Assembly: GCA_023701205.1 (NCBI GenBank)
Contig: JAMPXJ010000006.1
Span: forward strand, 86,404 to 150,403
DNA length: 64,000 nucleotides
From: Oligoflexia bacterium
Lineage (GTDB): Bacteria; Bdellovibrionota; UBA1018
Direction: 5' to 3'
The position numbers and the translations under genes are program-made. This document shows positions 6,936 through 26,188 of the stretch, one piece after another. Below the pieces are notes generated by a model that was given only the letters and a program-made list of their open reading frames with translations, was not told the origin of the DNA and did no database searches. Each line of letters opens with the position of its first letter. Positions within the stretch are counted from its first letter, which is position 1.

Positions 6936-9793
6936 GCGGGGAAACGGCGCCAGCGACGAATCTCTCTCCCGAACAGCAGCAGGTGGTGGACACCTGGGGC
7001 AGGGGAATGGCCGTGCTCGCGGGCGCGGGCTCGGGCAAGACGACGACGCTCGTGCTCAAGTGCGCGGAGCTGCTCAGGCGCAGGCCCGACGCGCGCTTCG
7101 CGGCGGTTTCCTTCACGGAGCGTTCCGCCGGGGATCTCCGGCTCAAGCTCTCCGAGCGACTCTCGCTCGAGGGGGAGGGTGGCGCCCTGGGCGGACATTG
7201 GGTCATGACGATCCACGGCCTGTGCCGCGCGATCCTGCGCGAGTACCCGCGCGAGGCGGGATTCGACGGCGAGGAGACGATGCTCTCGGAAGCCGAAGGA
7301 CAGCTCCTGTGGGAACGCGCCATCGAGTCGCTCTGGTTCGATGAGCTGCCCCCGGAGGTCGCGCGCGGGCTGGACGCGCTGCTGGCGCGCGAGAGCCGCG
7401 CGAGCGTTTTCCAGCTCCTCAAGCGGGTGCGCGAGCTCGCCGGCTTCGGAGGCCTGGAGTCGCTCGCGCGTTCGGAGGACGAAGCCGCGCGCGCGCTCGC
7501 GGCGATCGCCGGTCACGTGCTCTCGCGCTTCGAGCGACTGAAGCGACGCCGCGGGGCGCTTGATTTCTCGGATCTCGAGCTCGGGGCGGATCGCGCCCTG
7601 GAACATGCCCACGTCCGGGAAGCCTTTCACCGCCGCTTCGAGCTGGTGCTGGTTGACGAGTTCCAGGACACCAACCCCCTGCAGGCGAGGATCATCCTCA
7701 GATTTTGCCGGCCCGATACCTCGAACCTCTGCGTCGTGGGCGACCCCAAGCAGTCGATCTACCGCTTCCGCGACGCCGACGTGAGCGTCTTCGAGGATTT
7801 CTGCCGCAGGCTTCCTTCGCGTCACGTGCTGAGCTGGAACTTCCGCAGCCGGCCCGGCATCATCGAGTTCGCAAACGCCGTCTGCGCGCGCGCGTTCGCG
7901 GAGCCGGACGCGGCGCAGGCCATGCCTTACGACGCGCTGGAGCCGCGGCGCGAAGCCGACCCCGGCGCGATTCCGGTCGGGCGCCTCGACGTGCGCTCGC
8001 CCGCGGAGCTCGCCGCCTGGATCGGCGCCGAAGCCGCGCGGGGGGTGCCTTTGCACGAGATGGCGCTGCTCGTGCGTCGCATCCGCGGCAACGAGAAGTG
8101 GTTCAAGGCCCTGACTGCGGCGGGAATCCCGATCGCCATCGGCAGCGGCGGCCTCTTCTGGGAGGATCCGAGAGCGCGCGAGCTCGTGGCTTTCCTGCGC
8201 TGGTGGGATCTGCCGGCGAACTCGCTTTCGGGCGCGGTTTTCCTGCGTGCGCCGTGGGTGGGCGTCGCGGACGCCGAGCTCGACGCCTGGCACGGGAAGG
8301 ACCCGACGCTTTGGTCGCCGTTTTTCGCCTCCTCCCATCCGCTCGCGCGGGCGTTGTCGCCGCTGCGGGAGCGACCCGTGCGCCCCGGCGAGCTGCTCGA
8401 GGCGCTGCTGGTCGACGAGGGGCTCGAGCGCGAGCTCGGTGCGGCGCTGCTGGGGCTTTGGCATCGCGCCGAGGAGCTTTCGCTTCGCGGGCTCGACTTC
8501 CATCAGGTCGTGCTCGAGCTTGCGCGCGCGATCGAGGAGGGTCGGCGCGAGCGCGACGTTCCGCCTCCGCGCAACCTCGGGCAGCTTCCGGTCCTGACCT
8601 TCCACTCCTCCAAGGGCCTGGAGTTCAAGCACGTGATCCTGATCGATCTGGGCGAGAAGCCGCGCGCGATGCCCGCACCGCTGCTTTTCTGGGATCGCGA
8701 GCGGGGTGCATATCTCGGTCCGCGCGACGGCGACGGCGAGCGCGACCGCAAGCATCCGGTGGAGAACGCATGGCGCGAGACGGAGCGGGCGCGGAATCTC
8801 GCGGAGAGCAAACGCATCTTCTACGTGGCGCTCACGCGCGCGCGCGAGCGCCTGGTGCTGGCGTGCCCCGAGCTCTCGGAAAAGGCGCGCGAAAAGGGCT
8901 TCGATCCCGCCAAGGTTTATGGCGAAGAGGACTGGCGCGGTTGGCTGGAGTGTTCGGGCATCCGGCTGCCGGCGCTCTCGTCGGCGGACTGGCCCGGCCC
9001 CGGTGCCTCGACGGCCGACTCCGGTGCGGGGGGGCGCCCTGTTACGGAGCGTTCACGGGCTCTCCCGTTGCGGAGACCCCGCCATAGCGTGACGGAATGG
9101 AATCTGCTCGCGAAATGCCCGCGCGCCTATGAGTGGATGCACGCGCGACCGCGGCGGGTACCTTGCGAGTCGGAGCCCGAGCAGGAGGGGATCCCGCAGG
9201 CGGATCTCGGGAGCCGGGCTCACGCGGCGCTGGAGCTCGGAAATGAGGAAGCCTTGCGCGCCCTCGAAGCGGAGTTCGGAGCCGAGCGTTTCCGGGCCGC
9301 GCCGGTGTTGGAGTGGCTGCGCTCCAGCCGGTGGATGCGGCCGGGGCTGCGCGCATGGAGCGAGCTCGCGTTCGAGGTGCCGGTGCGAGGCCCCCTGGGA
9401 CCCGAAGCGCTGGTGGGCTCGATCGACCGCCTCGCCCTGGATCCCGATTCGGAACGCTTCGCGGTGATCGACTTCAAGGTGACCGCGCGCGCGCGCGCGC
9501 CGCGGAGTCTGCTGGAGTCCTATCGTTTGCAGCTGGAGCTTTACGCATGGGCGATCCAGGCGCTGCAGCCCGGGCTCGATCGCGAGAAGCTCGAGGCGTG
9601 GATCGTGAATCTCTCGCCCGAAGGCGTTTCGGAGATCCGCGTACCGCTCGAAGACGTTCGCGGTCCCTCGCCCGAGGCCTTGGCTTCGGAGGCCGCGCGG
9701 ATCGTCGCAGGCGGGGAAGGAGAGGCTCGGCCGGGTTCCCATTGCCGGTACTGTCGGGTGCGGGTGCTCTGTCCTCGCGCCGAATCCGATTGA
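6932..9793 (+). CDS. addA: AddA/UvrD-family ATP-dependent helicase with C-terminal RecB-type nuclease domain
   Basis: Walker A GAGSGKTTTL; UvrD motifs (VDEFQDTNPLQ; ...TFHSSKGLEFKHV; FYVALTRAR); C-terminal nuclease motif AVIDFKVT and a cysteine cluster CRYCRVRVLCP. Confidence 0.85.
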   Translation: MSGETAPATNLSPEQQQVVDTWGRGMAVLAGAGSGKTTTLVLKCAELLRRRPDARFAAVSFTERSAGDLRLKLSERLSLEGEGGALGGHWVMTIHGLCRAILREYPREAGFDGEETMLSEAEGQLLWERAIESLWFDELPPEVARGLDALLARESRASVFQLLKRVRELAGFGGLESLARSEDEAARALAAIAGHVLSRFERLKRRRGALDFSDLELGADRALEHAHVREAFHRRFELVLVDEFQDTNPLQARIILRFCRPDTSNLCVVGDPKQSIYRFRDADVSVFEDFCRRLPSRHVLSWNFRSRPGIIEFANAVCARAFAEPDAAQAMPYDALEPRREADPGAIPVGRLDVRSPAELAAWIGAEAARGVPLHEMALLVRRIRGNEKWFKALTAAGIPIAIGSGGLFWEDPRARELVAFLRWWDLPANSLSGAVFLRAPWVGVADAELDAWHGKDPTLWSPFFASSHPLARALSPLRERPVRPGELLEALLVDEGLERELGAALLGLWHRAEELSLRGLDFHQVVLELARAIEEGRRERDVPPPRNLGQLPVLTFHSSKGLEFKHVILIDLGEKPRAMPAPLLFWDRERGAYLGPRDGDGERDRKHPVENAWRETERARNLAESKRIFYVALTRARERLVLACPELSEKAREKGFDPAKVYGEEDWRGWLECSGIRLPALSSADWPGPGASTADSGAGGRPVTERSRALPLRRPRHSVTEWNLLAKCPRAYEWMHARPRRVPCESEPEQEGIPQADLGSRAHAALELGNEEALRALEAEFGAERFRAAPVLEWLRSSRWMRPGLRAWSELAFEVPVRGPLGPEALVGSIDRLALDPDSERFAVIDFKVTARARAPRSLLESYRLQLELYAWAIQALQPGLDREKLEAWIVNLSPEGVSEIRVPLEDVRGPSPEALASEAARIVAGGEGEARPGSHCRYCRVRVLCPRAESD

Positions 9794-10732
9794 TTACTGC
9801 AGGGGCGGCGCTTCGGCGGGCGGTGTTTCGATGGGCGGAGCTTCGACAGGAGGCGTTTCAACGGGTGGCGCTTCCGCGGGCGGGAGGTCGGGCGTCGGCA
9901 GATCGGCGGGCGGCGCCTCGGGCTGCAGCGGGGGCTCGGGTAGCGGAGCCGTTTCACCCGCCGGCGCTTCCGCCGGAGGTGGCGCGACGGGCTCCTGAGG
10001 CGCTTCGGGCTGCGGCTGCTGCTCCGGCTCGGCCGGCTGTTCCTCGGTCGGCTGCTGCGTCGCTTCGGCGGCGCGCCGGGCGTCTTCAGCCGCGCGCTTC
10101 TGCCGGTAGACCATTTTCCAGGGTTTTTCCGGCTGCTCCAGGTAGAAAGGCATGCTGAGGCCCAGACTGACCTGGTTGTAATCGGCGGATTGCAGCAGGG
10201 GGAGGCTTTTTGGACGGGTGCCGGAGACATTCCCGAAAAGCATCCGATCATAGAAGAGATTGATCAGGAGTTTTTCCGAGAGGAAATAGCCCATTCCCAA
10301 GCGGAAAGCGAACTTGCCTCCCATGCTCATCGCGGCGTCCGTATAGCCGGACGCCAGTTGCAGGGTTCCGGTCAGTCGGAGCGGGATATACTTGAGGTTT
10401 CCGCCGATCGAGGCGCCGGCGGTAAAGATCATCCCGGACTGCTCAGGGGAGATTTCCGCCAGAAGCACCCCAGGCTCGATCGCAAAGAAAATATCCTGTC
10501 TTTCGATGCCCAATCTCACCGAGCCGCCGAAGCCGAACGTGAGGCCCGAGCCTGATGCTTCATCGAGCACCGAGGAGACGCCGAGCCCGCCGCTTACGAT
10601 CGGCTCGATGAGCATCGCAGCTCGCGCGGGCTGAGGCGCCAGCGGCAGGATCGAAAGGATGGCGAGAAGAGAAAGCTGTGAACGGATGCGCGAGGCGCGC
10701 GGCGCGGGATTTTTTCTGATCAGCTTTATCAT
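9794..10732 (-). CDS. Outer-membrane beta-barrel-like protein with C-terminal Pro/Glu/Ala-rich repeat domain
   Basis: Signal peptide (LSLLAILSILPLAPQPARA|A); alternating amphipathic strands (GFGGSVRLGIE, KFAFRLGMGYFLS, INLFYDRMLFG); C-terminal 100 aa of PPxEx repeats. Confidence 0.6.
   Translation of the reverse strand: MIKLIRKNPAPRASRIRSQLSLLAILSILPLAPQPARAAMLIEPIVSGGLGVSSVLDEASGSGLTFGFGGSVRLGIERQDIFFAIEPGVLLAEISPEQSGMIFTAGASIGGNLKYIPLRLTGTLQLASGYTDAAMSMGGKFAFRLGMGYFLSEKLLINLFYDRMLFGNVSGTRPKSLPLLQSADYNQVSLGLSMPFYLEQPEKPWKMVYRQKRAAEDARRAAEATQQPTEEQPAEPEQQPQPEAPQEPVAPPPAEAPAGETAPLPEPPLQPEAPPADLPTPDLPPAEAPPVETPPVEAPPIETPPAEAPPLQ
9803..9892. repeat. Six tandem imperfect 15-bp units encoding the PPAEA/PPVET repeats of the upstream OMP
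   Basis: gggcggcgcttcggc / gggcggtgtttcgat / gggcggagcttcgac / aggaggcgtttcaac / gggtggcgcttccgc / gggcgggaggtcggg read directly. Confidence 0.6.
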
Positions 10733-10885
10733 GAATTGTCTTCAGGATCGGTGGGCTCCCTTCTTTTGTCAAGAAGAGCGGCCCGGCGGAACGTCGAAAT
10801 CTTGACGGCGCGTTCGCGGGGTCTCGCGAACCGGACCAAAAAACTTGCTGGAATTCAGGGGAAAGAGTTAGACTTTTTTAAAGTC

Positions 10886-11716
10886 ATGAAAAGCCATGGA
10901 AATCTTTTGGAGAAGCCTACGGGAACGATCAATCCGACGGGAGTCGCGGCGGCAGCTCCGGAGCGCGCCGGACTCAGGGCCTGGTTTCTGAAGCTGCTGC
11001 TGATCCTGGTGGCGATGCTCTGGCTCACCCTGATCGGGGCGAGCTGGATGCAGGGCGCGGAGGCCGCGCAGGCCGGCGGCGGCGAGTCGCCGGCAGACGA
11101 GTACAGCTTCAAGTGGCTGGACCCCGAGAAGAAGATCTACGTTCTGCAGAACCGGAGATATCTCAAGGCCAATCGGCTGCTTTTGAGCGCGATGGCGGGG
11201 CCGGGGCTTTCGAATCCCTATCGTACGACCTTGAGCCTGGAGCCGCGCGCGGCTTTCTACTTCCGCGAGGATCTGGGCCTGGAGGTCTTCTATCGCCGCG
11301 GCTTCAACACCTCGAACAACGCTTTCAAGGCGCTGGTGGCGACGAATTCCGCGGTTTACCCGGTGATCCGCGAGATCCGCTCCGAGTACGGGGCATTGAT
11401 GCATTGGGTGCCCTGGTACGCGAAGATCAACGTCTTCAACAAGATCCTCTATTTCGACTGGTATCTTTCGGGCGGCGCCGGCCAGCTGCAGACCTGGGTC
11501 AACCGGGATGCGCGCTTCCCGGAAGGCGAGTTCCTGCAGCAGGATCTTTTCGGTCTCTTCCTGGGAACCGGTCATCAGTACCATCTTTCCCGCGGGCTGA
11601 CTGTGCGGCTGGATATCACGGGGGCCTTCTATCAGGCGCCGACTTTCGGGAGCACGGGGGATCAGGTGTGGTTCTCGGACTACAACTTCGGCTTCGGCCT
11701 GGGATTGCGGATCTGA
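10886..11716 (+). CDS. Outer-membrane beta-barrel-like protein (GltA/GltB-like candidate)
   Basis: Hydrophobic N-terminal segment then AEAAQA; amphipathic beta-strand pattern; C-terminal ...YNFGFGLGLRI typical of OM barrel termini; start chosen at the internal ATG 10886 (longest ORF starts 10736). Confidence 0.55.
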   Translation: MKSHGNLLEKPTGTINPTGVAAAAPERAGLRAWFLKLLLILVAMLWLTLIGASWMQGAEAAQAGGGESPADEYSFKWLDPEKKIYVLQNRRYLKANRLLLSAMAGPGLSNPYRTTLSLEPRAAFYFREDLGLEVFYRRGFNTSNNAFKALVATNSAVYPVIREIRSEYGALMHWVPWYAKINVFNKILYFDWYLSGGAGQLQTWVNRDARFPEGEFLQQDLFGLFLGTGHQYHLSRGLTVRLDITGAFYQAPTFGSTGDQVWFSDYNFGFGLGLRI

Positions 11717-13236
11717 TGCGCGCAGCGGCTCTGCTCATCGCGGCGACGGTTCTCTCGGGGGGCGTCGCGGGCGCCGAGGAGCTTTCGGGCGCGGCCGCGA
11801 TCCGGGATGCCCAGGCGCTTTACCGCTCGGGGCAGTATTTCAAGGCGGCGCGCTACGCTTTCAGCGCGAAGGAGGCGGATCCGGGCCTCGCGGCGGAATC
11901 GTATTCCTGGGTCGCGCGCGGGCTGATTCGCGCGCGCCTCTATCACTCGGCTTCCTATTTTTTCATCAAGACGCTTCAGCAGAAGGACAAGGCCGCCATC
12001 CGTCGCGTGCTCGTCGACACGCAGGAGCTCATGGTCCGGGTGGGGCCCGATCTGCTCCGGCGCTATCTCCTCCAGCACACGCAGCTCGAGGATTACGATG
12101 CGCTCAACCGAAGCGCCTATCTCTACGCGCTCGGCAAGGACGCGCTCCTCGGCGGCAAGGAGGAGAAGGCGGTCGGGTACCTGAGCGCCATGAGCCCCAA
12201 GAGCCCGCTCTGGCCTTATGCGCTGCAGCTCCGCGGCTCGGCCCAGGCGATCCTGGGACGGGGAGACGCGGCGCTCGGGGATTTCCGCGGCTGCGCGGCG
12301 CTTTCGGATTCGTCGCCGGAGCTCGAGGATCTCGAGGCGCGCTGCAGGGCGGGCGAGGCGCGCACCCTGTATCAGCTGAATCGCTTCGAGGAGGCCGATC
12401 TGACCTATGACCAGATTCCGAAGACGAGCCTGGTCTGGCCCGACATCCTTTTCGAGCAGGCGTGGAACGCCTTCGCGCGCAACGAGTTCAACCGCTCTCT
12501 GGGCAAGCTGGTTTCCTACAAGAGTCCCGCGCTGAGCTTCGTCTTCAATCCCGAGATCGAGGTCCTGCGCGCGCAGTCGTTCCTGGCGCTTTGCCTTTAT
12601 GCCGAGGCCAACGACGCGATCAACGATTTCAACGGGAGATACGCGGGCGTGGGGGAGAAGGTGAAACGCCTGGTCGAGGAGAATTCCTCGAACGTGGGCG
12701 CGTTCCATGCGCTCGGCAGGCAGGCGCTTCGCGCCTCGATCACTTCGAAGGACGGCGTGCAGCAGCTGCTCAACCGCTTCGTGCGCGGGCCCTACTTCCA
12801 GACGCTGGTCAAGGCCGAGGAGGCCGCGGCCGCGGAGCTGGCGGTGATCCGTCGCTTCGATGCCGCGCAGCCGGGAGTGACTCACGATCCGAGCAAGGGG
12901 TTCCCGGGCTTCCTCGCGCAGGTCCTGGCCTGGCGCGCGCACTCGGCGCGGATGCTGGGCGGCGTTTTCGTGAAGAACAGCCTCATGGATCACCACGCCG
13001 AGCTGCTCGCGAATTTCGACAAGATGTCCTTCATCAAGCTGGAGATGCTCAAGAGGGCCAAGGAGCAGATCCTGTTGAAGAGCCGCGCCCGGGCCGACCG
13101 CGGCTGGGGGAATATCGAGCCTTCGCGGCAGGATTACCAGTATTACTGGGGCTTCAACGGGGAGTTCTGGAACGACGAGCTCGGTGACTACGTCTTCGGG
13201 CTCGAGTCAGAGTGCGGAGGCCGGAATGGGGCGTGA
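11716..13236 (+). CDS. Secreted TPR-like protein (GltE/AglT-like candidate), 507 aa
   Basis: ATG overlaps the upstream stop (ATGA); signal peptide MRAAALLIAATVLSGGVAGA; helical-repeat-like sequence (AQALYRSGQYFKAARYAF..., ALQLRGSAQAILGRGDAA...); the antisense 438-aa ORF is an Arg/Leu-rich artefact. Confidence 0.65.
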   Translation: MRAAALLIAATVLSGGVAGAEELSGAAAIRDAQALYRSGQYFKAARYAFSAKEADPGLAAESYSWVARGLIRARLYHSASYFFIKTLQQKDKAAIRRVLVDTQELMVRVGPDLLRRYLLQHTQLEDYDALNRSAYLYALGKDALLGGKEEKAVGYLSAMSPKSPLWPYALQLRGSAQAILGRGDAALGDFRGCAALSDSSPELEDLEARCRAGEARTLYQLNRFEEADLTYDQIPKTSLVWPDILFEQAWNAFARNEFNRSLGKLVSYKSPALSFVFNPEIEVLRAQSFLALCLYAEANDAINDFNGRYAGVGEKVKRLVEENSSNVGAFHALGRQALRASITSKDGVQQLLNRFVRGPYFQTLVKAEEAAAAELAVIRRFDAAQPGVTHDPSKGFPGFLAQVLAWRAHSARMLGGVFVKNSLMDHHAELLANFDKMSFIKLEMLKRAKEQILLKSRARADRGWGNIEPSRQDYQYYWGFNGEFWNDELGDYVFGLESECGGRNGA

Positions 13237-16200
13237 GTACGCGATCCTGCCCGCGTTGCTGGCGTTGAGTCTCGCGGCCGGGGTGCCGACGGCGTCGACG
13301 CCCGCGTGGGCTGCGACGAGCGCCTACTCCGAAGCGGAGATCCGCTCGATCGAGACCCCGGACGAGGTCCGGGTGCGCGAGCTGCGCAATCAGGAAATCA
13401 CCCAGCTCAGGATCGCGCTGGGCCGGCGCCTGCCCAACAATCGCCGGGCCGATCTCTATTTCCGTCTCGCGGAGATCTACCTCGAAGCCTACCGCATGGA
13501 ATACCTGCTCGAGGGGCGGGCTCACGAGAAGCGCGTCGAGAGCGGTCGGCAGGAGAAGGGGATCGATCATTCCCGCTCGAGGCCTTATCTGAAGAGCGGC
13601 ATCGCCGCCAGCCGGGAGATCCTGCGCTTCGGGATTCCCTACCCGAAGCTGGATCAGGTGTATTTCTTCCTCGGCTTCAATCACGGGGAGCTCGGGGAGG
13701 AGAAAGAAAGCCTCCGCTATTTCGAGCAGCTCGTGCGCAAGTTCCCCGGTAGCGTTTTCGCGGCGGAAGCTTATCAGCAGATGGGCGACGCCGCGTTCGA
13801 CGCGGGCCAGTTCCGCAAGGCGCAGGGGCATTATGAGGCCGCCACCGAGCTCGCCGCGCGCAAGGGCGCGGGCGACGGGGCGGTGCTGCCCCGGGTGCTG
13901 CACAAGCTGGCCTGGTGCTATTACCGGATCCGGCAGCATGACCGCGCCGTGGAAACCATGAAGCGCGCGATCGCGGCCGCGCGCCGGAGCGACGAGAAGT
14001 TCCTCTCGCTGCGCGAGGAGGCGCTCCGAGACATGGCCGTCTTCATGACGGAGTCCGGAAAAGTGGATGAGGCGGTCGCGTATTTCCAGGAGGCCGCCGG
14101 CGACAAGAGCTTCTATCCGAGGCTGCTCGAGAAGCTGGGCCGGCAGTACGAGCGCGGAGTGGAGCCGGCGAAAGCCACGCAGGTCTACGAGTCGCTGCTG
14201 AAGACGCATCCGGGAAGCGACGCCGCCTTCCGGGTGCTGGTGAAGCTGGTGGACCTCGATTTGCGACGCGGGCGCCATCGCGAAGCCCTGGCCCGCCTGC
14301 GGGACCTTCGCCTGAAGTCCGGGGATGACGAGACACAGGTGGCCTCGCAGAACCTCCGCGCGATGGTGCGGCGGACCGCGACGGAGCATCACGAGAAGTT
14401 CCGTAAGGCCGCGGGCGAGACCGGCGGCTCCGCCCGTTCGAAGGCGTTGCCCGCCCTCGAGATCGCCGAGGCCTTTTACGAGGTCTATCTCGCGACCTTC
14501 CTCGCCCAGGATGATCCCCGCAAGGAGACGCCGGAGATCCAGATGTATCTGGCCGAGGTGAAACGGGATCTCGGCAAGTCCAAGGAAGCGTCGGCGCTGT
14601 ACCGCAAGGTCGTGGATTCGCGTGATTCGCGCTATGCGAAGGAGGCTGGCGCCCTTTGGACGGCGAGTCTCGCCGAGGCGATCCGCAAGGAAATCTCCCA
14701 GGGACAGGCCCAGGGCAAGTCGCAGGAACCCTCGGAGCTGGAACGCGAGTTCATCTCGGCCGCGGACGCGCTCCGGGACGCGATCGGGGACACCGCCGAG
14801 GGACGCGAGGCCGCGCTCAAGGCCGCCGAAGTGCTGGCCGGTTACAAGGGCACCCAGAAGGACGCGATCAAGCGCGTGGAGAAGATCATCGATCGCTGGC
14901 CCCGTTCCGCGCAGGCCGTGACGGCCGCCCGGCTGTGGCTGCAGCTGCTTTCGGATCGCGGCGCGGGCGCTCTCGACGAGCTGAGCGACGCGCTCAAGGA
15001 GCTGCGCGGGAACGGCGTGCTCCTCGCCGCCGATCAGGAGCACGGAAAAGGAAAGCTTCACGCGCAGCTCGCCGAGCTGGAGTCCCGCGTCCGAATCGCG
15101 ACGATTGCGTCGCATGAGAAGGAAATGGACTTCGCCGCCGCCGCGAAGGGGTACGAGGAGTTCGCCCGCGACGCGGCCCAGCGGGAGCTCGCGGAGAAGG
15201 CCTATGCCAACGCGATCGGCAGTCATCTGAAGGCCGGCGACGATGAGGCCGTCGAGCGCGTCGGCCAGGCCTGGCTCAAGCGTTTCCCGAAAAGCCCGAA
15301 GGCCGCGGAGTCCTTGCGGGCAGCGGCGACCCAGCAGCTGGTCGCGGGTCGCTTCGACAAGGCAGCGAGGCTTTTCGAGCGCCTCGGCACCGAGGGCGGT
15401 GAGGCGGATTCGCTGGAAACCTCCGCCCGCATCCATGAGGGGCTCGGCAATGCCGGGGCGCTGACGAGCGCACTCAAGGCCTACCTCGGGACCTATCAGA
15501 CTCCGCAGCGGCCGCAGCTCGCGCTGCAGCTCGCGCGGGCGCTCGAGGCCGCGGGTCAGGACAGCGAGGCTTCCCGTTACTATCGCTTGTGCATGAGCGG
15601 CAGCGGGGAGCTCGAAACCGAATGCGGCGCGCGGCTGGCCGATCTGCATCTGCGCTCCAAGAGCGTGGCCGAAGCCAAGGCGCTCTATCGCAAGGTCGGC
15701 AAGGGCGGGGATTCCCCGTGGGTCGGTTATGCGCGCTACATGCTGGCGTCGATTACGGAGCAGGAGGCGGCTTTTCAGCCGTTGTCGCTTCCGGAAGCCC
15801 GGCTGAAGAAAGCCATGAGCCAACGCCTGGCGTTCGTCGAGACGCTGAGCCGCGCATACAATTCCGCGGTCGAGGCGGGTGGGCCCTGGGCCATCGCCGC
15901 ACTGGACCGGCTGGCGGACTGGGTACTCAGGTTCGCTGACGAGGTGGATGCGATCGCGACGCCCCCGCAGGCCAGCCCCGCGGCGGTCGCGCAGTTCCGA
16001 AAAAGCCTGGCGAGCGTGAGCTTGCCGCTGCGGCGCAAGGCGCTTCAGACCTGGCAGCAGGCCTATGCGAAGTCGGCCGCGGCGGAGGCGCTCAGTCCGG
16101 CGCTCCCGGGCATCGCGGACCGGCTGGCCGACTTCAAGGTGGGAGGCATCGGCAAGGCTCAGGGATTCAGAGGCCGGTTCCGGCTCGCGGGCATTCCCGC

Positions 16201-16864
16201 GAACGGCGGCTCCGAGGGAGGCGCGGCCTTGGAGAAGACGCGCGAAAGGCTTGCGAAGAACCTGCAGGACGCCGGCGCCTGGGTCGATTACGGCAATCTG
16301 CTTTGGGGCCAAGGCAAGCCGTTGCTCTCGAAGCTGGCTTATGATCGCGCACTGGCGCTCAACGCGCGCAATCCCGCGGCACTGAACAACCGCGCCGTCG
16401 TGGAGCTGAGTCTCGCGGACGCCGAGGATGACTGGAGCCTGGCGGCGGGAGCTTACGAGCGTTTCAAGAGCGCGCTCCGGCAGGACGAGTTCTTCCTTCC
16501 GGCGAAGTTCAACCGGGCGGCCCTGCTGAACTATTACCGGATCTTCGCGAAGGCCAAACCGCTCTGGGAGCAGGTGCTCGCCAAGGGCGCCAATGCCGAC
16601 GCGCAGGAGGGTCTCGGGATCGCGCTGCAGGGGCTGGGCAAGTCCGAGGCCGCCGCGGAGGGCTTCCGCAAGGCGGCCGCATCCGGAGGCTCCGCCTCGC
16701 GTTTCGTGTTCGCCTATCACGAGGCCGCGCGGGAGCCGGAGAGCTGCCAGGCGCGGCTCGAAGAGCTCGATGCGGGCTCGCTTTCCGGCTTCGAGAAGGC
16801 CGCGGTCGAGCGCCTCAGGAAAACGTGTTCCATGCGACAACCAACCTCGGGGAAATCAAGATGA
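13226..16864 (+). CDS. Giant secreted TPR-repeat protein (~1212 aa; GltD/AgmU- or NfsD-like candidate)
   Basis: Signal peptide MGREYAILPALLALSLAAGVPTAS; numerous TPR-like repeats (AEAYQQMGDAAFDAGQFRKAQGHYEAA...); start overlaps the upstream stop; an equally long antisense ORF (13154..16840) is rejected on composition. Confidence 0.75.
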   Translation: MGREYAILPALLALSLAAGVPTASTPAWAATSAYSEAEIRSIETPDEVRVRELRNQEITQLRIALGRRLPNNRRADLYFRLAEIYLEAYRMEYLLEGRAHEKRVESGRQEKGIDHSRSRPYLKSGIAASREILRFGIPYPKLDQVYFFLGFNHGELGEEKESLRYFEQLVRKFPGSVFAAEAYQQMGDAAFDAGQFRKAQGHYEAATELAARKGAGDGAVLPRVLHKLAWCYYRIRQHDRAVETMKRAIAAARRSDEKFLSLREEALRDMAVFMTESGKVDEAVAYFQEAAGDKSFYPRLLEKLGRQYERGVEPAKATQVYESLLKTHPGSDAAFRVLVKLVDLDLRRGRHREALARLRDLRLKSGDDETQVASQNLRAMVRRTATEHHEKFRKAAGETGGSARSKALPALEIAEAFYEVYLATFLAQDDPRKETPEIQMYLAEVKRDLGKSKEASALYRKVVDSRDSRYAKEAGALWTASLAEAIRKEISQGQAQGKSQEPSELEREFISAADALRDAIGDTAEGREAALKAAEVLAGYKGTQKDAIKRVEKIIDRWPRSAQAVTAARLWLQLLSDRGAGALDELSDALKELRGNGVLLAADQEHGKGKLHAQLAELESRVRIATIASHEKEMDFAAAAKGYEEFARDAAQRELAEKAYANAIGSHLKAGDDEAVERVGQAWLKRFPKSPKAAESLRAAATQQLVAGRFDKAARLFERLGTEGGEADSLETSARIHEGLGNAGALTSALKAYLGTYQTPQRPQLALQLARALEAAGQDSEASRYYRLCMSGSGELETECGARLADLHLRSKSVAEAKALYRKVGKGGDSPWVGYARYMLASITEQEAAFQPLSLPEARLKKAMSQRLAFVETLSRAYNSAVEAGGPWAIAALDRLADWVLRFADEVDAIATPPQASPAAVAQFRKSLASVSLPLRRKALQTWQQAYAKSAAAEALSPALPGIADRLADFKVGGIGKAQGFRGRFRLAGIPANGGSEGGAALEKTRERLAKNLQDAGAWVDYGNLLWGQGKPLLSKLAYDRALALNARNPAALNNRAVVELSLADAEDDWSLAAGAYERFKSALRQDEFFLPAKFNRAALLNYYRIFAKAKPLWEQVLAKGANADAQEGLGIALQGLGKSEAAAEGFRKAAASGGSASRFVFAYHEAAREPESCQARLEELDAGSLSGFEKAAVERLRKTCSMRQPTSGKSR

Positions 16865-17172
16865 CTTCCGCTTTTCGCGTGCTGTTTTTCATACTGACTC
16901 TCGCGGCGATCGGGGGCGTCTCCTTCGCCGCGGGCCTCGCCTGGGCGATCTCGGCGGAAGCCGCGGAACGGGACGGCGGCAAGGGCCGTTCCAAGGTCGT
17001 CTATCCCGAGAAGACGGAGCTGGATTTCGAGGGGCTGGCGATCGAAGGCGAGATCCGCAATCCGGGGGAATTCTACTTCCAGCACCGCACCGAGGAGAAG
17101 TTCGACTCGCTCGTGAAGCGGCGGCGCGACTTCCACCGCGAGATGCTGCGCGACGCGGTACTGGGAAAATAA
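16861..17172 (+). CDS. Small secreted protein (GltF-like candidate), ~103 aa
   Basis: ATGA overlap with the giant TPR gene; signal peptide MTSAFRVLFFILTLAAIGGVSFAAGLAWA; immediately upstream of the FHA protein. Confidence 0.5.
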   Translation: MTSAFRVLFFILTLAAIGGVSFAAGLAWAISAEAAERDGGKGRSKVVYPEKTELDFEGLAIEGEIRNPGEFYFQHRTEEKFDSLVKRRRDFHREMLRDAVLGK

Positions 17173-17184
17173 CGGAGAAGCACC

Positions 17185-19269
17185 ATGGATCACGGCGAGC
17201 AGGGCCCAAACGACGAGACCGTCACCGAAACATCCCGCAACGCGCCCCTGGCGCGCAAGGCGGCGCTCTTCTCCCTCGAGGTTCCCGCGGGCGGCGCTCC
17301 GCTCGAGGCGGATCAACAGCGCGTCTTCCGCCTGGGCAAGGAGCGCATCGTCGTAGGCTCGGTCGTTTCGGCTGACGTCCGGCTCCTGGGCAAGGGCGTG
17401 GCCCCGCTTCACGCGGTGGTCGAGATCACGGGCGCGCTTTCGGGCGAGCCCGAGGCCACCGTATACGATCTGGCGAGCGATTCCGGCGTTTTCGTCAACG
17501 GTCGGAAGATCGTGACCGGCGCCCTGAAGCCGGGCGATCTGCTGCGGGTGGGGCCGCACGAGCTTCGCTTCTCGATCAGCGACGCCGAGAAGGTGGTGCC
17601 GCGCGAGCGGGTGCGCGAGGCCGAAGGCCGCAAGCTCTATCTCAATCCCGATGAGGACCTGGCGCCGCTTCTGCTTCAGAGCGACGGCGAGGTGGATAAG
17701 ATCTTCGACTTCAGCCCGTGTCGCAAACGGGCGCTCGCGGTCGTGATGTCCTGGCACGGGACGATCATCGACGTGGAGCATTTCGTGAAGGAGAAATCCG
17801 TCACCGTCGGCGCCAACCGCAGGAGCGATTTCGCCATTCCGCCGCTGCTCTCGTCGAGCCGCTACGCGATCGTCACGCGGAGCGGGGAGGACTTCGTCCT
17901 GAATCTCGATCCGCAGATGAAAGGCGTGATCCAGCGCAAAGGCAAGCTCGAGACGTTCGAGGGGATCCGCGAAGGCGCATCGGTCGCCGGGCCGCAGAGC
18001 TATGGCATCCCGATCGGCAACGAGGATTTCGCCAAGGTTTCCATCGGCGACGTCGACTTCTACCTGAGCTACACCGACGCGCCCCCGCGCGTGAAGGCGG
18101 GCCGGCTGCTCGATCGCGATCCCTTCTTCCTGCGGGTCTTCGCGACTTCCCTGCTTTTCACCGCGGTCACGATCGGGGCCATGCTCAACGCCAACGTCCC
18201 GCAGAACCTCGAGGCCGAGCAGATCCCCGAGCGGATCGCGACGATCCTCTATCAGCCGGAGAAATACAGCGCACGCCCGAAGCGTGCGCCTGAGCCCTCG
18301 AGGCCCGAGCCCGTGAGAGCCGAGACCGCGAGGCCGCAGCCCAAGCCCACGCAGGTGGCGAAGCTCGACCTTCAGCCGAATCCGGCGAACGCCAAGAAGC
18401 CCGTGCCCAAGGAAATGAACGTGGGCGCGAAGCCCGAGGTCGCGAAGAATCCGGGCGGCTCCAAGAAGAAAAGCCCGGGCCAACGCGAGGCCAAGGAAGG
18501 ACGCGGCGCGCGCGCCAAGGGTACCGAAGGCAAGAGAGGCAGTCCCAAGGCCGCTCCTGGCGACAAGCCTCAGGACAGGGCGATGCGCGCATCGGCGCAG
18601 GGAGGTCCGGGGCGCGGCGGGGGCGCAAGCCAGGTCGAGAGCATCGGCAACGTGGACTTCCTGAGCTCCGCGGGCGCGAAGATTTCAGACATCCTCGGCA
18701 ACAGCGCCGAGAAGCTCGGCAAGGGCGGTGAGCGACTCAAGGGCTTCGGCGGTTTCACCACGCAAGGGGGCGGGGGGCTCGCGCTCTCCGGTGACGGCAA
18801 GGGCGGCGGCGGGACGGCCGATTCCCTGGGCGGCCTCGCCACGAGCGGTACCGGCGGCGGGCGAGTGGGCACCGGCAAGGGCGCCGCGGGCTTGGGCAGC
18901 GGCATGATCGGAGGCAAGGCGCGCGTGGCGATCCGCACGGGCGGTCCCGAGGAGGCTGTCGTCATGGGCTCCATCGACGCCAGCGCGGTCGAAGCCGCGC
19001 TGCTCGCGCACCGGGACGAGTTCCGGCTCTGCTACGAAAAGGAAATCAACGCCGAGACGCCTGATCTTGCGGGCCGCGTGAGCACGAGCTTCGTGATCGG
19101 CTCCACGGGCCGAGTGACCCAGGCGGGCATCGAGTCGACGACCCTGAAGCACGCCAATACCGAGCGCTGCGTGCTGAACGTGATCCGGCGGATCGACTTC
19201 CCGATCCCGCGCGGGGCGGGCATCGTGCAGGTTACCTATCCGTTCAAGTTCAATCCGACGCGGCGCTAG
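17185..19269 (+). CDS. FHA-domain / single-TM / Pro-Lys-rich and Gly-rich linker / TonB_C-like periplasmic domain protein (GltG/PglI-like candidate)
   Basis: FHA-like N-terminus (VFRLGKERIVVGSVVSADVRLLGKGVAPLHAVVE...VYDLASDSGVFVNGRKI...LRVGPHELRF); TM helix FFLRVFATSLLFTAVTIGAML; PKP/KPE-rich then GGxG-rich linkers; C-terminal TonB_C-like pattern (...STSFVIGSTGRV...CVLNVIRRIDFPIPRG...VTYPFKF); SD ggagaag before ATG. Confidence 0.75.
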   Translation: MDHGEQGPNDETVTETSRNAPLARKAALFSLEVPAGGAPLEADQQRVFRLGKERIVVGSVVSADVRLLGKGVAPLHAVVEITGALSGEPEATVYDLASDSGVFVNGRKIVTGALKPGDLLRVGPHELRFSISDAEKVVPRERVREAEGRKLYLNPDEDLAPLLLQSDGEVDKIFDFSPCRKRALAVVMSWHGTIIDVEHFVKEKSVTVGANRRSDFAIPPLLSSSRYAIVTRSGEDFVLNLDPQMKGVIQRKGKLETFEGIREGASVAGPQSYGIPIGNEDFAKVSIGDVDFYLSYTDAPPRVKAGRLLDRDPFFLRVFATSLLFTAVTIGAMLNANVPQNLEAEQIPERIATILYQPEKYSARPKRAPEPSRPEPVRAETARPQPKPTQVAKLDLQPNPANAKKPVPKEMNVGAKPEVAKNPGGSKKKSPGQREAKEGRGARAKGTEGKRGSPKAAPGDKPQDRAMRASAQGGPGRGGGASQVESIGNVDFLSSAGAKISDILGNSAEKLGKGGERLKGFGGFTTQGGGGLALSGDGKGGGGTADSLGGLATSGTGGGRVGTGKGAAGLGSGMIGGKARVAIRTGGPEEAVVMGSIDASAVEAALLAHRDEFRLCYEKEINAETPDLAGRVSTSFVIGSTGRVTQAGIESTTLKHANTERCVLNVIRRIDFPIPRGAGIVQVTYPFKFNPTRR

Positions 19270-19279
19270 TACTGCGTCC

Positions 19280-19403
19280 GCGAGGAGACTATCCTAACTC
19301 AGCTCAGGCTCGCGGGGGACATCCTGTCCACAACAAACCCTCGCCTGGACCCTCCTGGTCCAGCTCGGCTTATCAGCTGAGCTGAGTAGGATAGTCTCCT
19401 CGC
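19280..19403. repeat. Near-perfect 27/28-bp inverted repeat separated by 69 nt, between convergent genes
   Basis: Arm1 19280-19307 GCGAGGAGACTATCCTAACTCAGCTCAG; arm2 19377-19403 CTGAGCTGAGTAGGATAGTCTCCTCGC (reverse complement with a single 1-nt indel); smaller hairpins inside (ggaccctcctggtcc) and downstream (aggcccggcatagcgggcct; ggctcgctttgcgagcc). Confidence 0.7.
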
Positions 19404-19483
19404 TCCATTCCTCGTCTAGGCCCGGCATAGCGGGCCTAAGGTACTGGCTCGCTTTGCGAGCCTCGCACGGAGCGAGGAGGCGA

Positions 19484-20056
19484 CTACTCCTTCTTAAGCG
19501 CGAGGAACCGGAAGACCTTGTAGCCGGCGGCGGCCGAGGTGTACATCACGCGCCGAACCGTCTCGTACTGCACGCGTTTGTCGGCCTGGATGGCCAGGAC
19601 GCCCTCGAACGGCAGGGGGTTGCCCTTCTCGTCGCGGGTCTTGGACTTCGCGCGCAGCAGCTCGGCCTTGTCCCGCGCCTTCGTCAAGGCGTCATAGAGC
19701 GGCACGATCCGGCGTCCGCCCTCGTCGAGGTCCGTTTTCCTGAATTCGTAGCTCGGTCCCGAGCCATCGAGGCTCGCCGCCGTCTGCACGAACTCGAGGA
19801 TGCGCTCGTTCTCGAAAGTGACCGCCTCGGGCGTGATGATGACCTGCAGGCTCTCCGGGGGCATTTCCTCCGAACGCGAGATCGGAAGCTGCATGCCCGG
19901 GACGGTGGTAAAGGTATTGATCGTCGTCGAGTAGCTCTTCAGGAGGAAAACGACGATGATCACCAGCACGTCCATCATGCTCGTGAGCTGGAGCTCGAAG
20001 ACCTGATTGATCTTGCGCCGGCCCCGGCGCGAGCGGATCGAGCGGTGGAAGGCCAT
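19484..20056 (-). CDS. ExbD/TolR-family biopolymer transport protein (AglS-like candidate)
   Basis: Basic N-terminus, single TM (LTSMMDVLVIIVVFLL), periplasmic ExbD-like domain; ATGA overlap with the upstream ExbD gene. Confidence 0.8.
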   Translation of the reverse strand: MAFHRSIRSRRGRRKINQVFELQLTSMMDVLVIIVVFLLKSYSTTINTFTTVPGMQLPISRSEEMPPESLQVIITPEAVTFENERILEFVQTAASLDGSGPSYEFRKTDLDEGGRRIVPLYDALTKARDKAELLRAKSKTRDEKGNPLPFEGVLAIQADKRVQYETVRRVMYTSAAAGYKVFRFLALKKE

Positions 20057-20613
20057 CAGCTGTCCCCTCCCGGCGCGGAAAGCAGGTTTCCGAAGATGAT
20101 CTCCGGGAAAAGCTTCTTCACGGCTTCATCGTTGCCGCTCTGGGGGTTGCGGGCGAAGATCGGGGCATCCGTCGCCTCGACGGCCCGTGCGGAGTCCATC
20201 AGCGAGACCAGGACGTCGTAGGTCGTGGCCGCGTGAGGAACGAGCACGAGCTTCGTCTCATTGGGGAAGAGCTTCTTGATCTCGAGCAGCCCTGAGTGGA
20301 TGCCGGCGATGTCGGGCTGGCCAGGCAGCGCGTGGGGGATCTTCTTCGAGGCGAACTTCTCGAACGGGCTCCACAGCTCGGTGTCCGACTCGTGGACCGA
20401 GACGGTGAGCTGCAGGGGCTTCTCCTTGAGCTGCTCCTCCATCTCCTTTTCGCTCGAGATGGGGAAGGGCGACTCGATGTGCACGATCGAGAGGAACGAG
20501 GTCGTGAAAAGGAGGAATCCGATCAGCGTGACCATGGTGTCGAGGATCGGCACCAGGTTGAGGTTGATCCCTTCGGCGGAGGATTTGCGGCGGGAGCTCG
20601 GGCGCTTGAGCAC
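20056..20613 (-). CDS. ExbD/TolR-family biopolymer transport protein (AglQ-like candidate)
   Basis: INLNLVPILDTMVTLIGFLLF TM and ExbD-like periplasmic domain; 6 nt downstream of the TolQ-like gene. Confidence 0.75.
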   Translation of the reverse strand: MLKRPSSRRKSSAEGINLNLVPILDTMVTLIGFLLFTTSFLSIVHIESPFPISSEKEMEEQLKEKPLQLTVSVHESDTELWSPFEKFASKKIPHALPGQPDIAGIHSGLLEIKKLFPNETKLVLVPHAATTYDVLVSLMDSARAVEATDAPIFARNPQSGNDEAVKKLFPEIIFGNLLSAPGGDS

Positions 20614-20619
20614 GGCCCG

Positions 20620-21288
20620 TCACTCCGCCTTCTGCGCGCCCTGGCGGTACTTGCGTGCCGAGAGCAGATCCAGGAGCTTCACGCCGAACTCATCGATCTC
20701 CTCGAGCAGGCGGCTGGCCTGGTTCGAGAGGATGCTGTGGGCGATCATCGTGAAGATCGCGGTGATCAGGCCGAACGCCGTGGCGTTCATGGCCTCCGAA
20801 ATACCCGCCGAAAGGATCGCTTGCCGCTGCGCCGGATCCGCCTGCGCGATCGCCGCGAAGGACTTGATCAGGCCGCTGATGGTGCCCAGGAGGCCCAGCA
20901 GGGTGGCGATATTGGCGATCAGGGCGAGATAGGGAAGGCGCCGCTCGAGCTTCGGGATCATCTCCAGGCTCGTGGCATCGATCGCGTTCTGGATCTGGTT
21001 CTCGTCGCGCGAAGCGCGTTGCAGCCCGGCTTTGATGACCTTGGCCAGGGCCTTGTTGCCCCCGCCGTTACAGAGGCGGATCGCGCCGTCGATGTCGTTG
21101 GCCAGGATGTATTTCTGGACCTCGAACATGAAGGAGGCTCCGTCGACGTTGTACTGGATATAGAGCCGGTAAGCCCGCTCGATCGTCAAGGCGACGGAAA
21201 CGGCCAGGGAGATCGCGATGGGGATCATCCAGGCTCCGCCTGTTTGGAAGGCCGCGATCATGCTGTTGATGAAGCTCGTTTGTTCCAT
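20620..21288 (-). CDS. MotA/TolQ/ExbB-family proton channel (AglR-like candidate)
   Basis: Three TM segments and conserved C-terminal TolQ/ExbB region (LALIANIATLLGLLGTISGLI...AISEAMNATAFGLITAIFTMIAHSIL); heads a three-gene operon. Confidence 0.85.
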   Translation of the reverse strand: MEQTSFINSMIAAFQTGGAWMIPIAISLAVSVALTIERAYRLYIQYNVDGASFMFEVQKYILANDIDGAIRLCNGGGNKALAKVIKAGLQRASRDENQIQNAIDATSLEMIPKLERRLPYLALIANIATLLGLLGTISGLIKSFAAIAQADPAQRQAILSAGISEAMNATAFGLITAIFTMIAHSILSNQASRLLEEIDEFGVKLLDLLSARKYRQGAQKAE

Positions 21289-21404
21289 GAGCTTGGGTCT
21301 CCTTCGAATGGACGCGCGTGAAATGGGCGCGAGTATTGGAATTCCTTAGTTAAAGGATAACGGATTTGACGAGGCGGTCAATGGATTAACCCGCGGGGAA
21401 GGGC

Positions 21405-22009: not shown

Positions 22010-22486
22010 ATGCTAGTCGCACTCAGCTTGGATCTGAAACCGGTTCCCGCACGTCAGAAAGTCGGCGTGCTCAACCGTGTTTCCGCCAAAATGATCGATA
22101 TCCTCCTGATCATCGGCGTCGCGGCGATTCTGCCCTACCCCCTGGGGCCGCTCCTCGCGTTTCTCTACAGCCTTTTGGCCGATGGATTGAATTTCGGCCC
22201 GTTTGCCGGACAGAGCGTCGGCAAGCGCCTCATGCGGCTGCAGGTGGTCAACGTCAAGACCCGCAAGCCTGCCAGCTACCGTGACTCGATGCTTCGCAAT
22301 ACCCCGGTCGGGGTGGCGACCTTTTTCGCGATCATTCCGGTGTGGGGCTGGCTCATCCTGGTCCTGGTCGGGGTGCCTCTCATGGTCATGGAGATCTACC
22401 TGATGATGAGCGTCGAGGCCGGCCATCGCCTGGGCGACGTGATGGGGGATTCCGAGGTCATCGAATTGCCGCGCCAGAGCAGCTAA
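22010..22486 (+). CDS. RDD-family membrane protein
   Basis: Hydrophobic segments with conserved R...D..D spacing (RLMRLQVVNVKTRKPASYRDSMLRN) typical of the RDD family. Confidence 0.55.
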   Translation: MLVALSLDLKPVPARQKVGVLNRVSAKMIDILLIIGVAAILPYPLGPLLAFLYSLLADGLNFGPFAGQSVGKRLMRLQVVNVKTRKPASYRDSMLRNTPVGVATFFAIIPVWGWLILVLVGVPLMVMEIYLMMSVEAGHRLGDVMGDSEVIELPRQSS

Positions 22487-22527
22487 CGGGTGCGGCCCAG
22501 GTTTTTGTTGTGCTATGAGGGGAGGAT

Positions 22528-25537: not shown

Positions 25538-26188
25538 CTAAGCTCCGCAGAGCAGCGATTCGTCCAGCGAGCGCCAGCCTTCCACGGCCCGGTCGACCGA
25601 GGAGGCCCGCCCTGCGCTGAAAAGGAGCGCGTGTCTTCCGTCAGCGGATACGCCATAGCTCAGTGCATGGTTTGGGTTCGTGCGCACGGTTTTGCAAAAA
25701 CGGCCTGACTTCAAAAGGGTGAAGCCGTAGGAGTGCAGTAAGCCCAGGCGGTCTTCGGAGAACTCCACGATCAAATAGAGTGTCGCCACTGGTGCGCCCA
25801 AGAATCGACCGAGTACGCCCGAAATCGTGGGAGGGAAGTCCAGCGTCGCGTTTTTCCCGCTTAGGCCTTTCGCGGAGAGAATCAGGCCCTCATTCACAAA
25901 GTAGTTCTCATCGCAGATTTCCGTTCCCCGGACGTGTACGCAATTGGTTTCGAAATTGTCAGTTATCCGGGAGGTGATCGTACCTCCGTGAGGCGGAACG
26001 AAGTTGTGCAGCGGTTCCGTGCTGTTTACCGGTAAGCTGGCGGGCAATAACCGGATCTCGCTCGCGGGTAGCTTGGCGGCCGGAAGATCCGCGATAGGAA
26101 TGGATGGGGGCTGTTCCGCGCAGCCGCCAAGCAGGAGTCCGAAGCCGATGCTGACAACTAGCGCCGAATTCCGTCTTAACGGATTCAT
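25538..26188 (-). CDS. Hypothetical lipoprotein (reduced-GC region)
   Basis: Signal peptide plus lipobox LLGGC; no recognisable catalytic motifs. Confidence 0.5.
   Translation of the reverse strand: MNPLRRNSALVVSIGFGLLLGGCAEQPPSIPIADLPAAKLPASEIRLLPASLPVNSTEPLHNFVPPHGGTITSRITDNFETNCVHVRGTEICDENYFVNEGLILSAKGLSGKNATLDFPPTISGVLGRFLGAPVATLYLIVEFSEDRLGLLHSYGFTLLKSGRFCKTVRTNPNHALSYGVSADGRHALLFSAGRASSVDRAVEGWRSLDESLLCGA

Follow-up and report, generated by a model that had tools for sequence, protein, structure and literature searches.

Can one compact chromosomal locus encode an envelope-spanning machine of the Agl-Glt/Nfs type, motor included? The question is raised by nine open reading frames (ORFs) at positions 9794–21288 of a 64,000-nucleotide (nt) stretch of DNA (hereafter the window) from an Oligoflexia bacterium (assembly GCA_023701205.1, contig JAMPXJ010000006.1; genome ~63% GC), for which a sequence-only reading had proposed an Agl-Glt/Nfs-type machine and a TolQ/2xExbD motor in one locus. 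This proposal is supported by profile matches to GltC, CglF, GltG and OMP_myx_plus, by a GltG-like predicted fold and by conserved synteny, and the locus probably encodes a compact force transducer of the Agl-Glt/Nfs family that is driven by the proton motive force, spans the envelope and has gliding as its likeliest output. Family and mechanism taken jointly are very likely, while for slow surface gliding of the Bdellovibrio kind the case is evenly poised. All nine ORFs exist, their positions agreeing with those first assigned either exactly or to a few bases, and show the strong third-position GC bias (0.73–0.90) of real genes, although the interval 10886–19269 holds five co-directional genes rather than the six originally counted.

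The 694-amino-acid (aa) protein matched the GltG model NF033760 (gliding_GltG; 188 bits, E 3e-55; equivalog cutoff of 650 not reached) and, over its cutoff of 40, the model of the AgmX/PglI tail (NF033768, myxo_SS_tail; 80.1 bits), while the GltJ model scored only 40 bits via the shared C-terminal domain. Pfam identified FHA, Yop-YscD_cpl (a YscD-type FHA) and weak TonB_C domains, and the NCBI name of the protein is 'AgmX/PglI C-terminal domain-containing protein'. In an AlphaFold2 (AF2) model built with 18 homologues, two beta-sandwiches (residues 25–133 and 180–300) are followed by a helix (313–335) and an alpha/beta domain (597–690), with predicted disorder at ~340–590; the linker of ~260 aa (~336–596) is Pro/Ala/Lys-rich and then Gly-rich (33% Gly), and a single hydrophobic helix lies at 316–334. 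The top PDB fold matches of this model were FHA domains (TM-score ~0.86, normalised to the target), and a PDB search by sequence returned no matches. A 2025 model of M. xanthus GltG (PMC11761067) has an FHA domain at 1–114, a central FHA domain at 190–329, a helix at 330–348, a disordered linker and a TonB C-terminal domain (TonB-CTD) at 544–640, and the predicted architecture of the window protein supports the same layout. The earlier identification with GltG, based on an FHA domain, one transmembrane helix, Pro/Lys- and Gly-rich spacers and a TonB_C domain, was confirmed in each of these elements. In the first FHA domain, Ser59 and Pro74 are conserved in 55 and 59 of ~60 orthologues, respectively, and His76 and Asn105 are kept. 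Ser59 and Pro74 occupy what we take to be the sites of the phosphothreonine-binding Arg and Ser in canonical FHA domains, and this domain may not bind phosphothreonine. The transmembrane helix carries a conserved Ser322-x3-Thr326 and no His; in TonB and TolA, a conserved His mediates motor binding (PMC12204202). The GltG-like protein is the only TonB/TolA-like partner for the motor in its vicinity.

Two further structural proteins were matched by models of gliding proteins. The 506-aa protein, initially read as a ~507-aa tetratricopeptide repeat (TPR) protein equivalent to GltE/AglT, is instead GltC-like: residues 215–501 matched positions 332–620 of the 622-position model NF033756 (gliding_GltC; E 5.8e-27, 94.7 bits), a score below the equivalog cutoff of 450 that indicates homology only, and the same model matched 18/18 orthologues (best 2.5e-34). 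No TPR was found in this protein by Pfam, and its matches to PDB sequences were at chance level only. The GltE model NF033758 matched none of the window proteins; the model was present in the library searched, since 7/30 GltD-like homologues matched it weakly, and the space between the GltD-like and GltG-like genes is insufficient for another gene. Three of four Bdellovibrio clusters are also without GltE (PMC3169522 Table S3), and GltE is evidently not indispensable for the conserved gene set. The 103-aa protein, whose signal peptide ends in AWA, matched NF033764 (gliding_CglF; E 1e-9, 38.3 bits; cutoff of 90 not reached), as did 17/17 orthologues (best 1.7e-11). CglF and GltF are the same protein (PMC4488436), and the assignment of a ~100-aa secreted protein to GltF holds.

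The 1212-aa protein is the weakest assignment of the set. It is considered GltD-like for its size, its signal peptide, its predicted TPR solenoid and its location in the operon; no family-specific sequence match was obtained for the earlier identification of this ~1210-aa TPR protein with GltD. Multiple TPR Pfam families were detected, and an alignment-based AF2 model (pLDDT 88) is an all-alpha TPR solenoid for which Foldseek returned generic long (eukaryotic) TPR scaffolds only from the PDB, e.g., IFT-A, Ski3 and Ctr9. Bdellovibrio homologues of GltD span 987–1237 aa (PMC3169522 Table S3), and the position after GltC and before GltF-GltG parallels the gltD-E-F-G order of Myxococcus (PMC3169522). 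The YbgF/CpoB TPR model matched 30/30 GltD-like homologues and residues ~162–248 of the window protein (53.8 bits against a cutoff of 90); YbgF/CpoB is the TolA-binding protein, and by analogy the match would fit a scaffold that binds the TolA/TonB-like GltG. Public annotation of the GltD-like protein reads only 'tetratricopeptide repeat protein'.

The first gene of the operon, OMP2, begins at ATG 10886, unless translation starts at the in-frame TTG at 10907, and has a hydrophobic signal segment at residues 34–52. Its product scored 69.7 bits on TIGR04565 (OMP_myx_plus), over the curated cutoff of 60, and this model matched 18/18 OMP2 orthologues, which, like the orthologues of GltC and GltF above, were drawn from 17 other loci; the Pfam OMP_b-brl match was weak. 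Both the size of OMP2 and its place beside GltC agree with GltB and GltA (275 and 256 aa, respectively; PMC4488436) and with Bd0829 and Bd1475 (PMC3169522 Table S3). From these we infer a GltA/GltB-type barrel; a literature search returned nothing on TIGR04565.

Three genes on the opposite strand encode the putative motor. Pfam assigned MotA_ExbB to the TolQ-like protein (3.2e-28) and ExbD to the 185-aa (7.5e-9) and 190-aa (3.6e-13) proteins. The TolQ-like protein reached 79.9 bits on the TolQ model TIGR02796 (cutoff 221) and 47.4 on ExbB (cutoff 206), and scores were similarly low for TolR (17.6 bits; cutoff 127), the ExbD models (at most 21.6; cutoffs 123–216) and TonB (32.5; cutoff 315). 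With cutoffs missed by such wide margins, the motor proteins are, judged by profile scores, equivalogs of neither TolQ/TolR nor ExbB/ExbD. By sequence, the solved structures nearest to the TolQ-like protein are the TolQ and ExbB pentamers, which it clearly resembles, and the PDB matches of the ExbD-like proteins were marginal only. Thr136 and Thr170 of the TolQ-like protein are each conserved in 27/27 orthologues and Glu165 in 23/27, and the transmembrane Asp of the ExbD-like proteins is conserved throughout (Asp25 of the 185-aa protein in 28/28 orthologues, Asp29 of the 190-aa protein in 29/29). We take these Asp, Thr and Glu residues to be the proton-relay positions of TolQR/ExbBD. The two ExbD-like proteins are 26% identical to each other over 58 aa, and a single channel gene accompanied by two dissimilar plug genes is how AglR, AglQ and AglS are organised. 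Their order in M. xanthus is R-Q-S, and Bd0836-0838 likewise follow the glt genes as R-Q-S (PMC3169522 Table S3); on gene order, the ExbD-like pair would correspond to AglQ and AglS.

Conservation was assessed across 68 related loci from GTDB species, all of them metagenome-assembled genomes (MAGs) of Bdellovibrionota, with no cultured Bdellovibrio or Myxococcus among them. The order OMP2-GltC-GltD-GltF-GltG was the same in 44/44 loci with enough sequence (tblastn). A motor lay at most 10 kb from the glt genes in 33/47 downstream-informative loci, mostly in convergent orientation, with gaps of 11 bp to 9.9 kb; in two loci (L018 and L054) it was co-directional and directly followed GltG. This frequency of nearby motors, together with the variable gaps, indicates that the linkage is real and not rigid. 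The surrounding addB-addA ... [glt/agl] ... RDD-polA neighbourhood is itself conserved in many of the 68 species, which indicates that the cluster has been passed on vertically in one fixed place on the chromosome and is not carried on a mobile island. The closest relatives with the same cluster, L003 (Bdellovibrionota bacterium FG-1), L007 (UBA1018) and L030 (genus CAIRTR01), belong to the uncultured class UBA1018 (proposed 'Bdellonasia'), the sister of Bacteriovoracia. Among the members of this clade are the MAGs FG-1 and FG-2, which are magnetotactic and putatively predatory (PMC13200544, 2026); the word 'gliding' is absent from that paper.

In related genomes, the gap that separates GltG from the motor has taken up insertions of variable content. 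For example, it holds a 902-aa Big_5/Lcl_C surface-type protein and two ~800-aa proteins without a Pfam match in L005 (8594–16120), thioredoxin-NHL proteins in L043, L046 and L049 (about 13.2–15.5 kb), DUF885 in L004 (11948–13879) and SelO in L052 (13053–14672). Such inserts were considered as additional Glt parts and rejected, as their contents are unrelated cargo.

Within the window, the five structural genes on the + strand form a tightly coupled operon, as indicated by their junctions: a TGATG with 1-nt overlap between OMP2 and GltC (which places the GltC start at ATG 11716, not 11713), an 11-nt overlap of GltC and GltD, an ATGA overlap of GltD and GltF, and, from GltF to GltG, a 12-nt gap that contains GGAG. 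The motor genes are similarly close, with TGATG joining the two ExbD genes and 6 nt separating TolQ from the first of them. Between the two operons, the 215-bp spacer contains a 17-nt perfect inverted repeat (19280–19296 / 19387–19403) that is extendable to ~27 bp with one bulge, and the RNA fold of 19266–19490 is a branched hairpin of very high stability (-119.5 kcal/mol, z = -8.07). The spacer belongs to no Rfam family and has no second copy in the window and none in the related loci; it probably insulates the structural operon from the motor operon or terminates transcription in both directions. The promoter-like site of the motor operon comprises TTGACC, a 16-nt spacer and TATCCT, with 9/12 consensus matches.

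Table 1 Features of the glt/agl-like locus (window coordinates; strand as + or -).
Feature	Position	Strand	Remarks
OMP1, small outer-membrane barrel	9794-10732	-	312 aa; divergent from operon
OMP2, GltA/GltB-type barrel (putative)	10886-11716	+	276 aa; operon gene 1
GltC-like periplasmic connector	11716-13236	+	506 aa; signal peptide
GltD/AgmU-like periplasmic TPR scaffold	13226-16864	+	1212 aa; signal peptide
GltF/CglF-like small secreted protein	16861-17172	+	103 aa
GltG/PglI-like inner-membrane force transducer	17185-19269	+	694 aa
Convergent intergenic spacer, branched hairpin	19270-19483	.	RNA fold, inverted repeat
Second ExbD/TolR-like subunit, AglS-like by gene order	19484-20056	-	190 aa
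First ExbD/TolR-like subunit, AglQ-like by gene order	20056-20613	-	185 aa
TolQ/ExbB/AglR-like proton-channel subunit	20620-21288	-	222 aa; three hydrophobic helices
Promoter-like site 5' of motor operon	21354-21381	-	consensus match only

Single-locus clusters of this kind have precedents. In the scheme of Luciano et al. 2011 (PMC3169522), AglRQS together with GltC, D, E and G make up a core complex, whose genes lie in one region of the genome in Geobacter and every non-Deltaproteobacterial carrier, including Gammaproteobacteria. An expanded set, which adds GltA, B and F, was found only in Myxococcales and Bdellovibrionales and was used to predict gliders. B. bacteriovorus HD100 has four contiguous clusters (Bd0413-0420, Bd0828-0838, Bd1474-1481 and Bd2369-...; PMC3169522 Table S3). 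The contiguity of structural and motor genes, which the sequence-only reading had contrasted with M. xanthus, is thus not new, and single-locus clusters were already described in 2011 for this phylum. Bd1474-1481 (GltC, GltB, GltG, GltF, GltD, AglS, AglQ, AglR) has the eight-gene content of the conserved set in the window, both being without GltE, and in Bd0828-0838 both gene order and protein sizes come close to those found here (240/266/529/1066/281/707/221/158/196 aa versus 312/276/506/1212/103/694/222/185/190 aa in the window), a likeness that rests on shared Myxococcus-derived models and the published table. In contrast to the apparently co-directional motor of Bdellovibrio, the motor in the window is convergent, and the GltF-like gene fills the slot that the GltE homologue Bd0833 occupies in Bd0828-0838. 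The host also differs, lying in or near the uncultured class UBA1018 of the same phylum rather than in Bdellovibrionia.

Similarity to the M. xanthus Agl-Glt machine extends to homologous GltC, GltF and GltG, a putative scaffold of the GltD kind, a putative barrel of the GltA/B type and a motor encoded by one TolQ-like and two TolR-like genes, with the same GltG layout and, presumably, the same path of force from inner to outer membrane. However, M. xanthus has its genes divided among three clusters (G1, G2 and M1) rather than in one locus, and the machine also needs GltE, H, I, J and K, CglB, AglZ and MglA, none of which was found in the window. For the Agl-Nfs machine of the M. xanthus spore coat (NfsA-H), the structural genes likewise stand together in one operon and encode paralogous parts (A/B barrels, C, D, F and G). 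That machine also uses a TolQR-like Agl motor, but it has NfsE and NfsH, its AglRQS genes are encoded elsewhere and it acts in sporulation. With Tol-Pal and TonB-ExbBD the locus shares a proton-driven stator of the 5:2 type, a one-helix transducer with a long linker and a TonB-CTD-like end, and a CpoB/YbgF-like TPR partner. In contrast to those systems, it has two different TolR-like subunits, cytoplasmic FHA domains on the transducer and a Ser-x3-Thr helix without His, lacks TolB/Pal or a TonB-dependent receptor, and leaves the equivalog cutoffs unreached.

What this locus and its relatives show directly is their gene content, that four of the five structural proteins are homologous to Glt proteins, the GltG layout, conservation of the relay residues and synteny; subunit contacts, borrowed from the AlphaFold model of the M. 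xanthus machine (PMC11761067), and output would follow by analogy. A TolQ-like (AglR-like) pentamer with a heterodimer of the two TolR/ExbD-like (AglQ/AglS-like) subunits would convert proton flow into movement in the inner membrane. The motor would engage the single transmembrane helix of the GltG-like protein and pull on it or rotate against it. The Pro/Lys- and Gly-rich linker would then span the periplasm and peptidoglycan, and the TonB-CTD-like end would dock on the 1212-aa GltD-like scaffold, which the GltF-like and GltC-like proteins may tie to the GltA/B-type barrel. In this genome, a second, lineage-restricted barrel (OMP1) is possibly involved too.

OMP1 is encoded divergently from the operon and consists of a signal peptide, a ~160-aa OmpX/OmpA-like barrel with a PWR-type motif at its end, and a tail of ~105 aa rich in Pro, Ala and Glu. 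Pfam OMP_b-brl matched it weakly (E 0.005) but recognised 10/20 members of its family, with 3.3e-8 as the best value. Both barrels foreseen by the sequence-only reading have weak OMP_b-brl matches, and the divergent one is missing from almost all related loci. Among 1.84 billion proteins, a HMMER search with the first 205 residues found 21 cluster representatives (E<=1e-3); members have in common the signal peptide, the ~160-aa domain and the PWR-type motif, followed by a Pro/Glu-rich tail of nil to >150 residues. A word-indexed search of 5.8 billion proteins returned only OMP1 itself, and the 68 related loci gave no tblastn match, with one copy (in L011) detected later by profile search. In 7/7 contexts (the window, L011 and L069-L073) the gene is divergent and lies beside the GltB-like gene, followed by the GltC-like and GltD-like genes, and the arrangement in L071 (AIRS-AddB-AddA-OMP1-OMP2-GltC-GltD) is identical to that in the window. 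That OMP1 is a paralogue of OMP2, as in a GltA/GltB-like pair, was rejected, as no relation was seen by BLASTP and the hhalign probability was 2%; a spurious ORF is ruled out by the 21 signal-peptide-bearing relatives and the conserved position. OMP1 is a real, rare and position-locked accessory gene that lies outside the conserved core and is not universal in the cluster; its family is a small new point of this analysis.

Several points weigh against an Agl-Glt/Nfs-type transducer that serves gliding. All matches to Glt models (GltC, CglF and GltG) fall under the equivalog cutoffs, so that the GltC-, GltF- and GltG-like proteins are distant homologues rather than orthologues of the Myxococcus proteins, and no GltD-specific NCBIfam model matched either the window protein or any of 30 homologues. 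No motor was present within 8 kb or more in 14/47 informative loci. GltH, GltI, GltJ, GltK/CglC, CglB, AglZ and MglA were not found in the 64-kb window, where the other ORFs scanned were housekeeping genes or had no match, and the adhesin and cytoplasmic platform required in Myxococcus are therefore absent or encoded elsewhere in the genome. The host is uncultured and hence without a phenotype, a 2026 review describes the Bdellovibrio gliding machinery as still experimentally unidentified (PMC13104615), and the core complex alone is held not to drive motility (Luciano et al.; PMC3169522). Function everywhere outside Myxococcus is therefore presumptive.

The main rival is the same machine with an output other than locomotion, such as the movement or assembly of surface polymers, envelope remodelling at prey entry or exit, or the role that the core complex has in non-gliders, and this we regard as possible, if on balance unlikely. 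The core complex is present in many non-gliders and is unlikely to be the sole driver of motility (PMC3169522), Agl-Nfs builds a spore coat with homologous parts (PMC3858216), the window is without an adhesin (CglB/GltK) or the MglA/AglZ/GltI/GltJ platform, and across the clade the cluster is framed by stable housekeeping surroundings (addAB ... RDD-polA). However, the locus has 'expanded' parts (GltF and a GltB-type barrel) that served as predictors of gliders (PMC3169522). B. bacteriovorus, which has equivalent clusters, glides. Sporulation is, to our knowledge, not known in this clade, which also counts against this rival.

It is improbable that the structural operon and the TolQ-ExbD-ExbD operon are chance neighbours, the motor serving TonB-type uptake or Tol-Pal-type maintenance. 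The motor genes do occupy the other strand, beyond a spacer with strong predicted structure, and related loci either have none nearby (the 14 noted above) or separate it from GltG by gaps of widely varying length with unrelated cargo. Against this, a motor near glt is the more frequent arrangement (33/47) and on occasion follows GltG directly on the same strand, the TolQ, ExbB and ExbD cutoffs were missed, and tolA, tolB, pal, cpoB, tonB or a receptor does not adjoin the cluster. Furthermore, two different TolR-like genes fit the AglQ/AglS design, the Bdellovibrio motor genes stand as R-Q-S after glt, and GltG is the sole TonB/TolA-like partner nearby. That the locus is merely a Tol-Pal or TonB-dependent uptake system to which unusual TPR proteins have been added is very improbable and largely refuted, for although TonB_C, TolQ and ExbD Pfam domains are present and the GltD-like TPR block resembles YbgF/CpoB, no equivalog threshold for TolQ, TolR, ExbB, ExbD, TonB or YbgF was reached, no TonB-dependent receptor, TolB or Pal was found and the specific matches were to GltC, CglF and GltG, so that the searches returned neither the Tol-Pal membership, nor the ExbB/ExbD orthology, nor the unrelated families that the sequence-only reading had named as outcomes contrary to it.

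An Agl-Glt/Nfs-type transducer at this locus leaves current understanding of the system unchanged, and the GltG-like protein is already labelled in public annotation. The additions made here are conservation across the clade, in class UBA1018 and its relatives, the dispensability of GltE for the conserved set and a rare accessory barrel family. The Agl-Glt family is thereby extended to a whole uncultured class-level clade of Bdellovibrionota, and a fixed set of eight genes that dozens of species retain in the same chromosomal neighbourhood provides a clean comparative data set for asking which Glt parts cannot be lost and where residues are under constraint (for example, the FHA domain without the usual Arg/Ser and the Ser-x3-Thr helix). 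A more speculative and rather doubtful view is that the eight genes form a minimal, self-contained Agl-Glt machine without GltE, H, I, J, K or CglB, for which some lineages recruit a barrel of the previously undescribed OMP1 family as a second barrel or surface-contact element. If that were true and the set sufficed for surface movement, no gliding transducer would be smaller, and it would offer a model less complex than Myxococcus.

The cluster is sharply bounded by housekeeping genes, with AIR-synthase-related, AddB-like and AddA-like genes upstream (addAB-side span 4197–9793) and genes for an RDD protein and DNA polymerase I/PolA downstream (22010–25461). Domain scans of these flanking genes revealed no tolA, tolB, pal, cpoB, tonB or TonB-dependent receptor gene adjoining the cluster, confirming the initial observation that the motor has no tolA/tolB/pal or tonB partner beside it. 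Within the locus Pfam reports generic domains only (two weak OMP_b-brl, TPRs, FHA, a weak TonB_C, two ExbD and MotA_ExbB), and additional glt/agl paralogues were found in the window neither by tblastn nor by Pfam/NCBIfam scans of 30 other ORFs. Beyond polA, the segment 25538–32529 contains six ORFs without a Pfam or NCBIfam match (25538–26188, -; 26252–26893, +; 27492–28979, +; 29645–31294, +; 31318–31836, -; 31843–32529, -) in the stretch of lowest GC (0.57 at 26–30 kb), and this block could be lineage-specific or acquired DNA. The first 2 kb of the window has its minimum GC (0.536), and the ORFs 1564–2268 (+) and 2359–2949 (-) are similarly without a Pfam/NCBIfam match.

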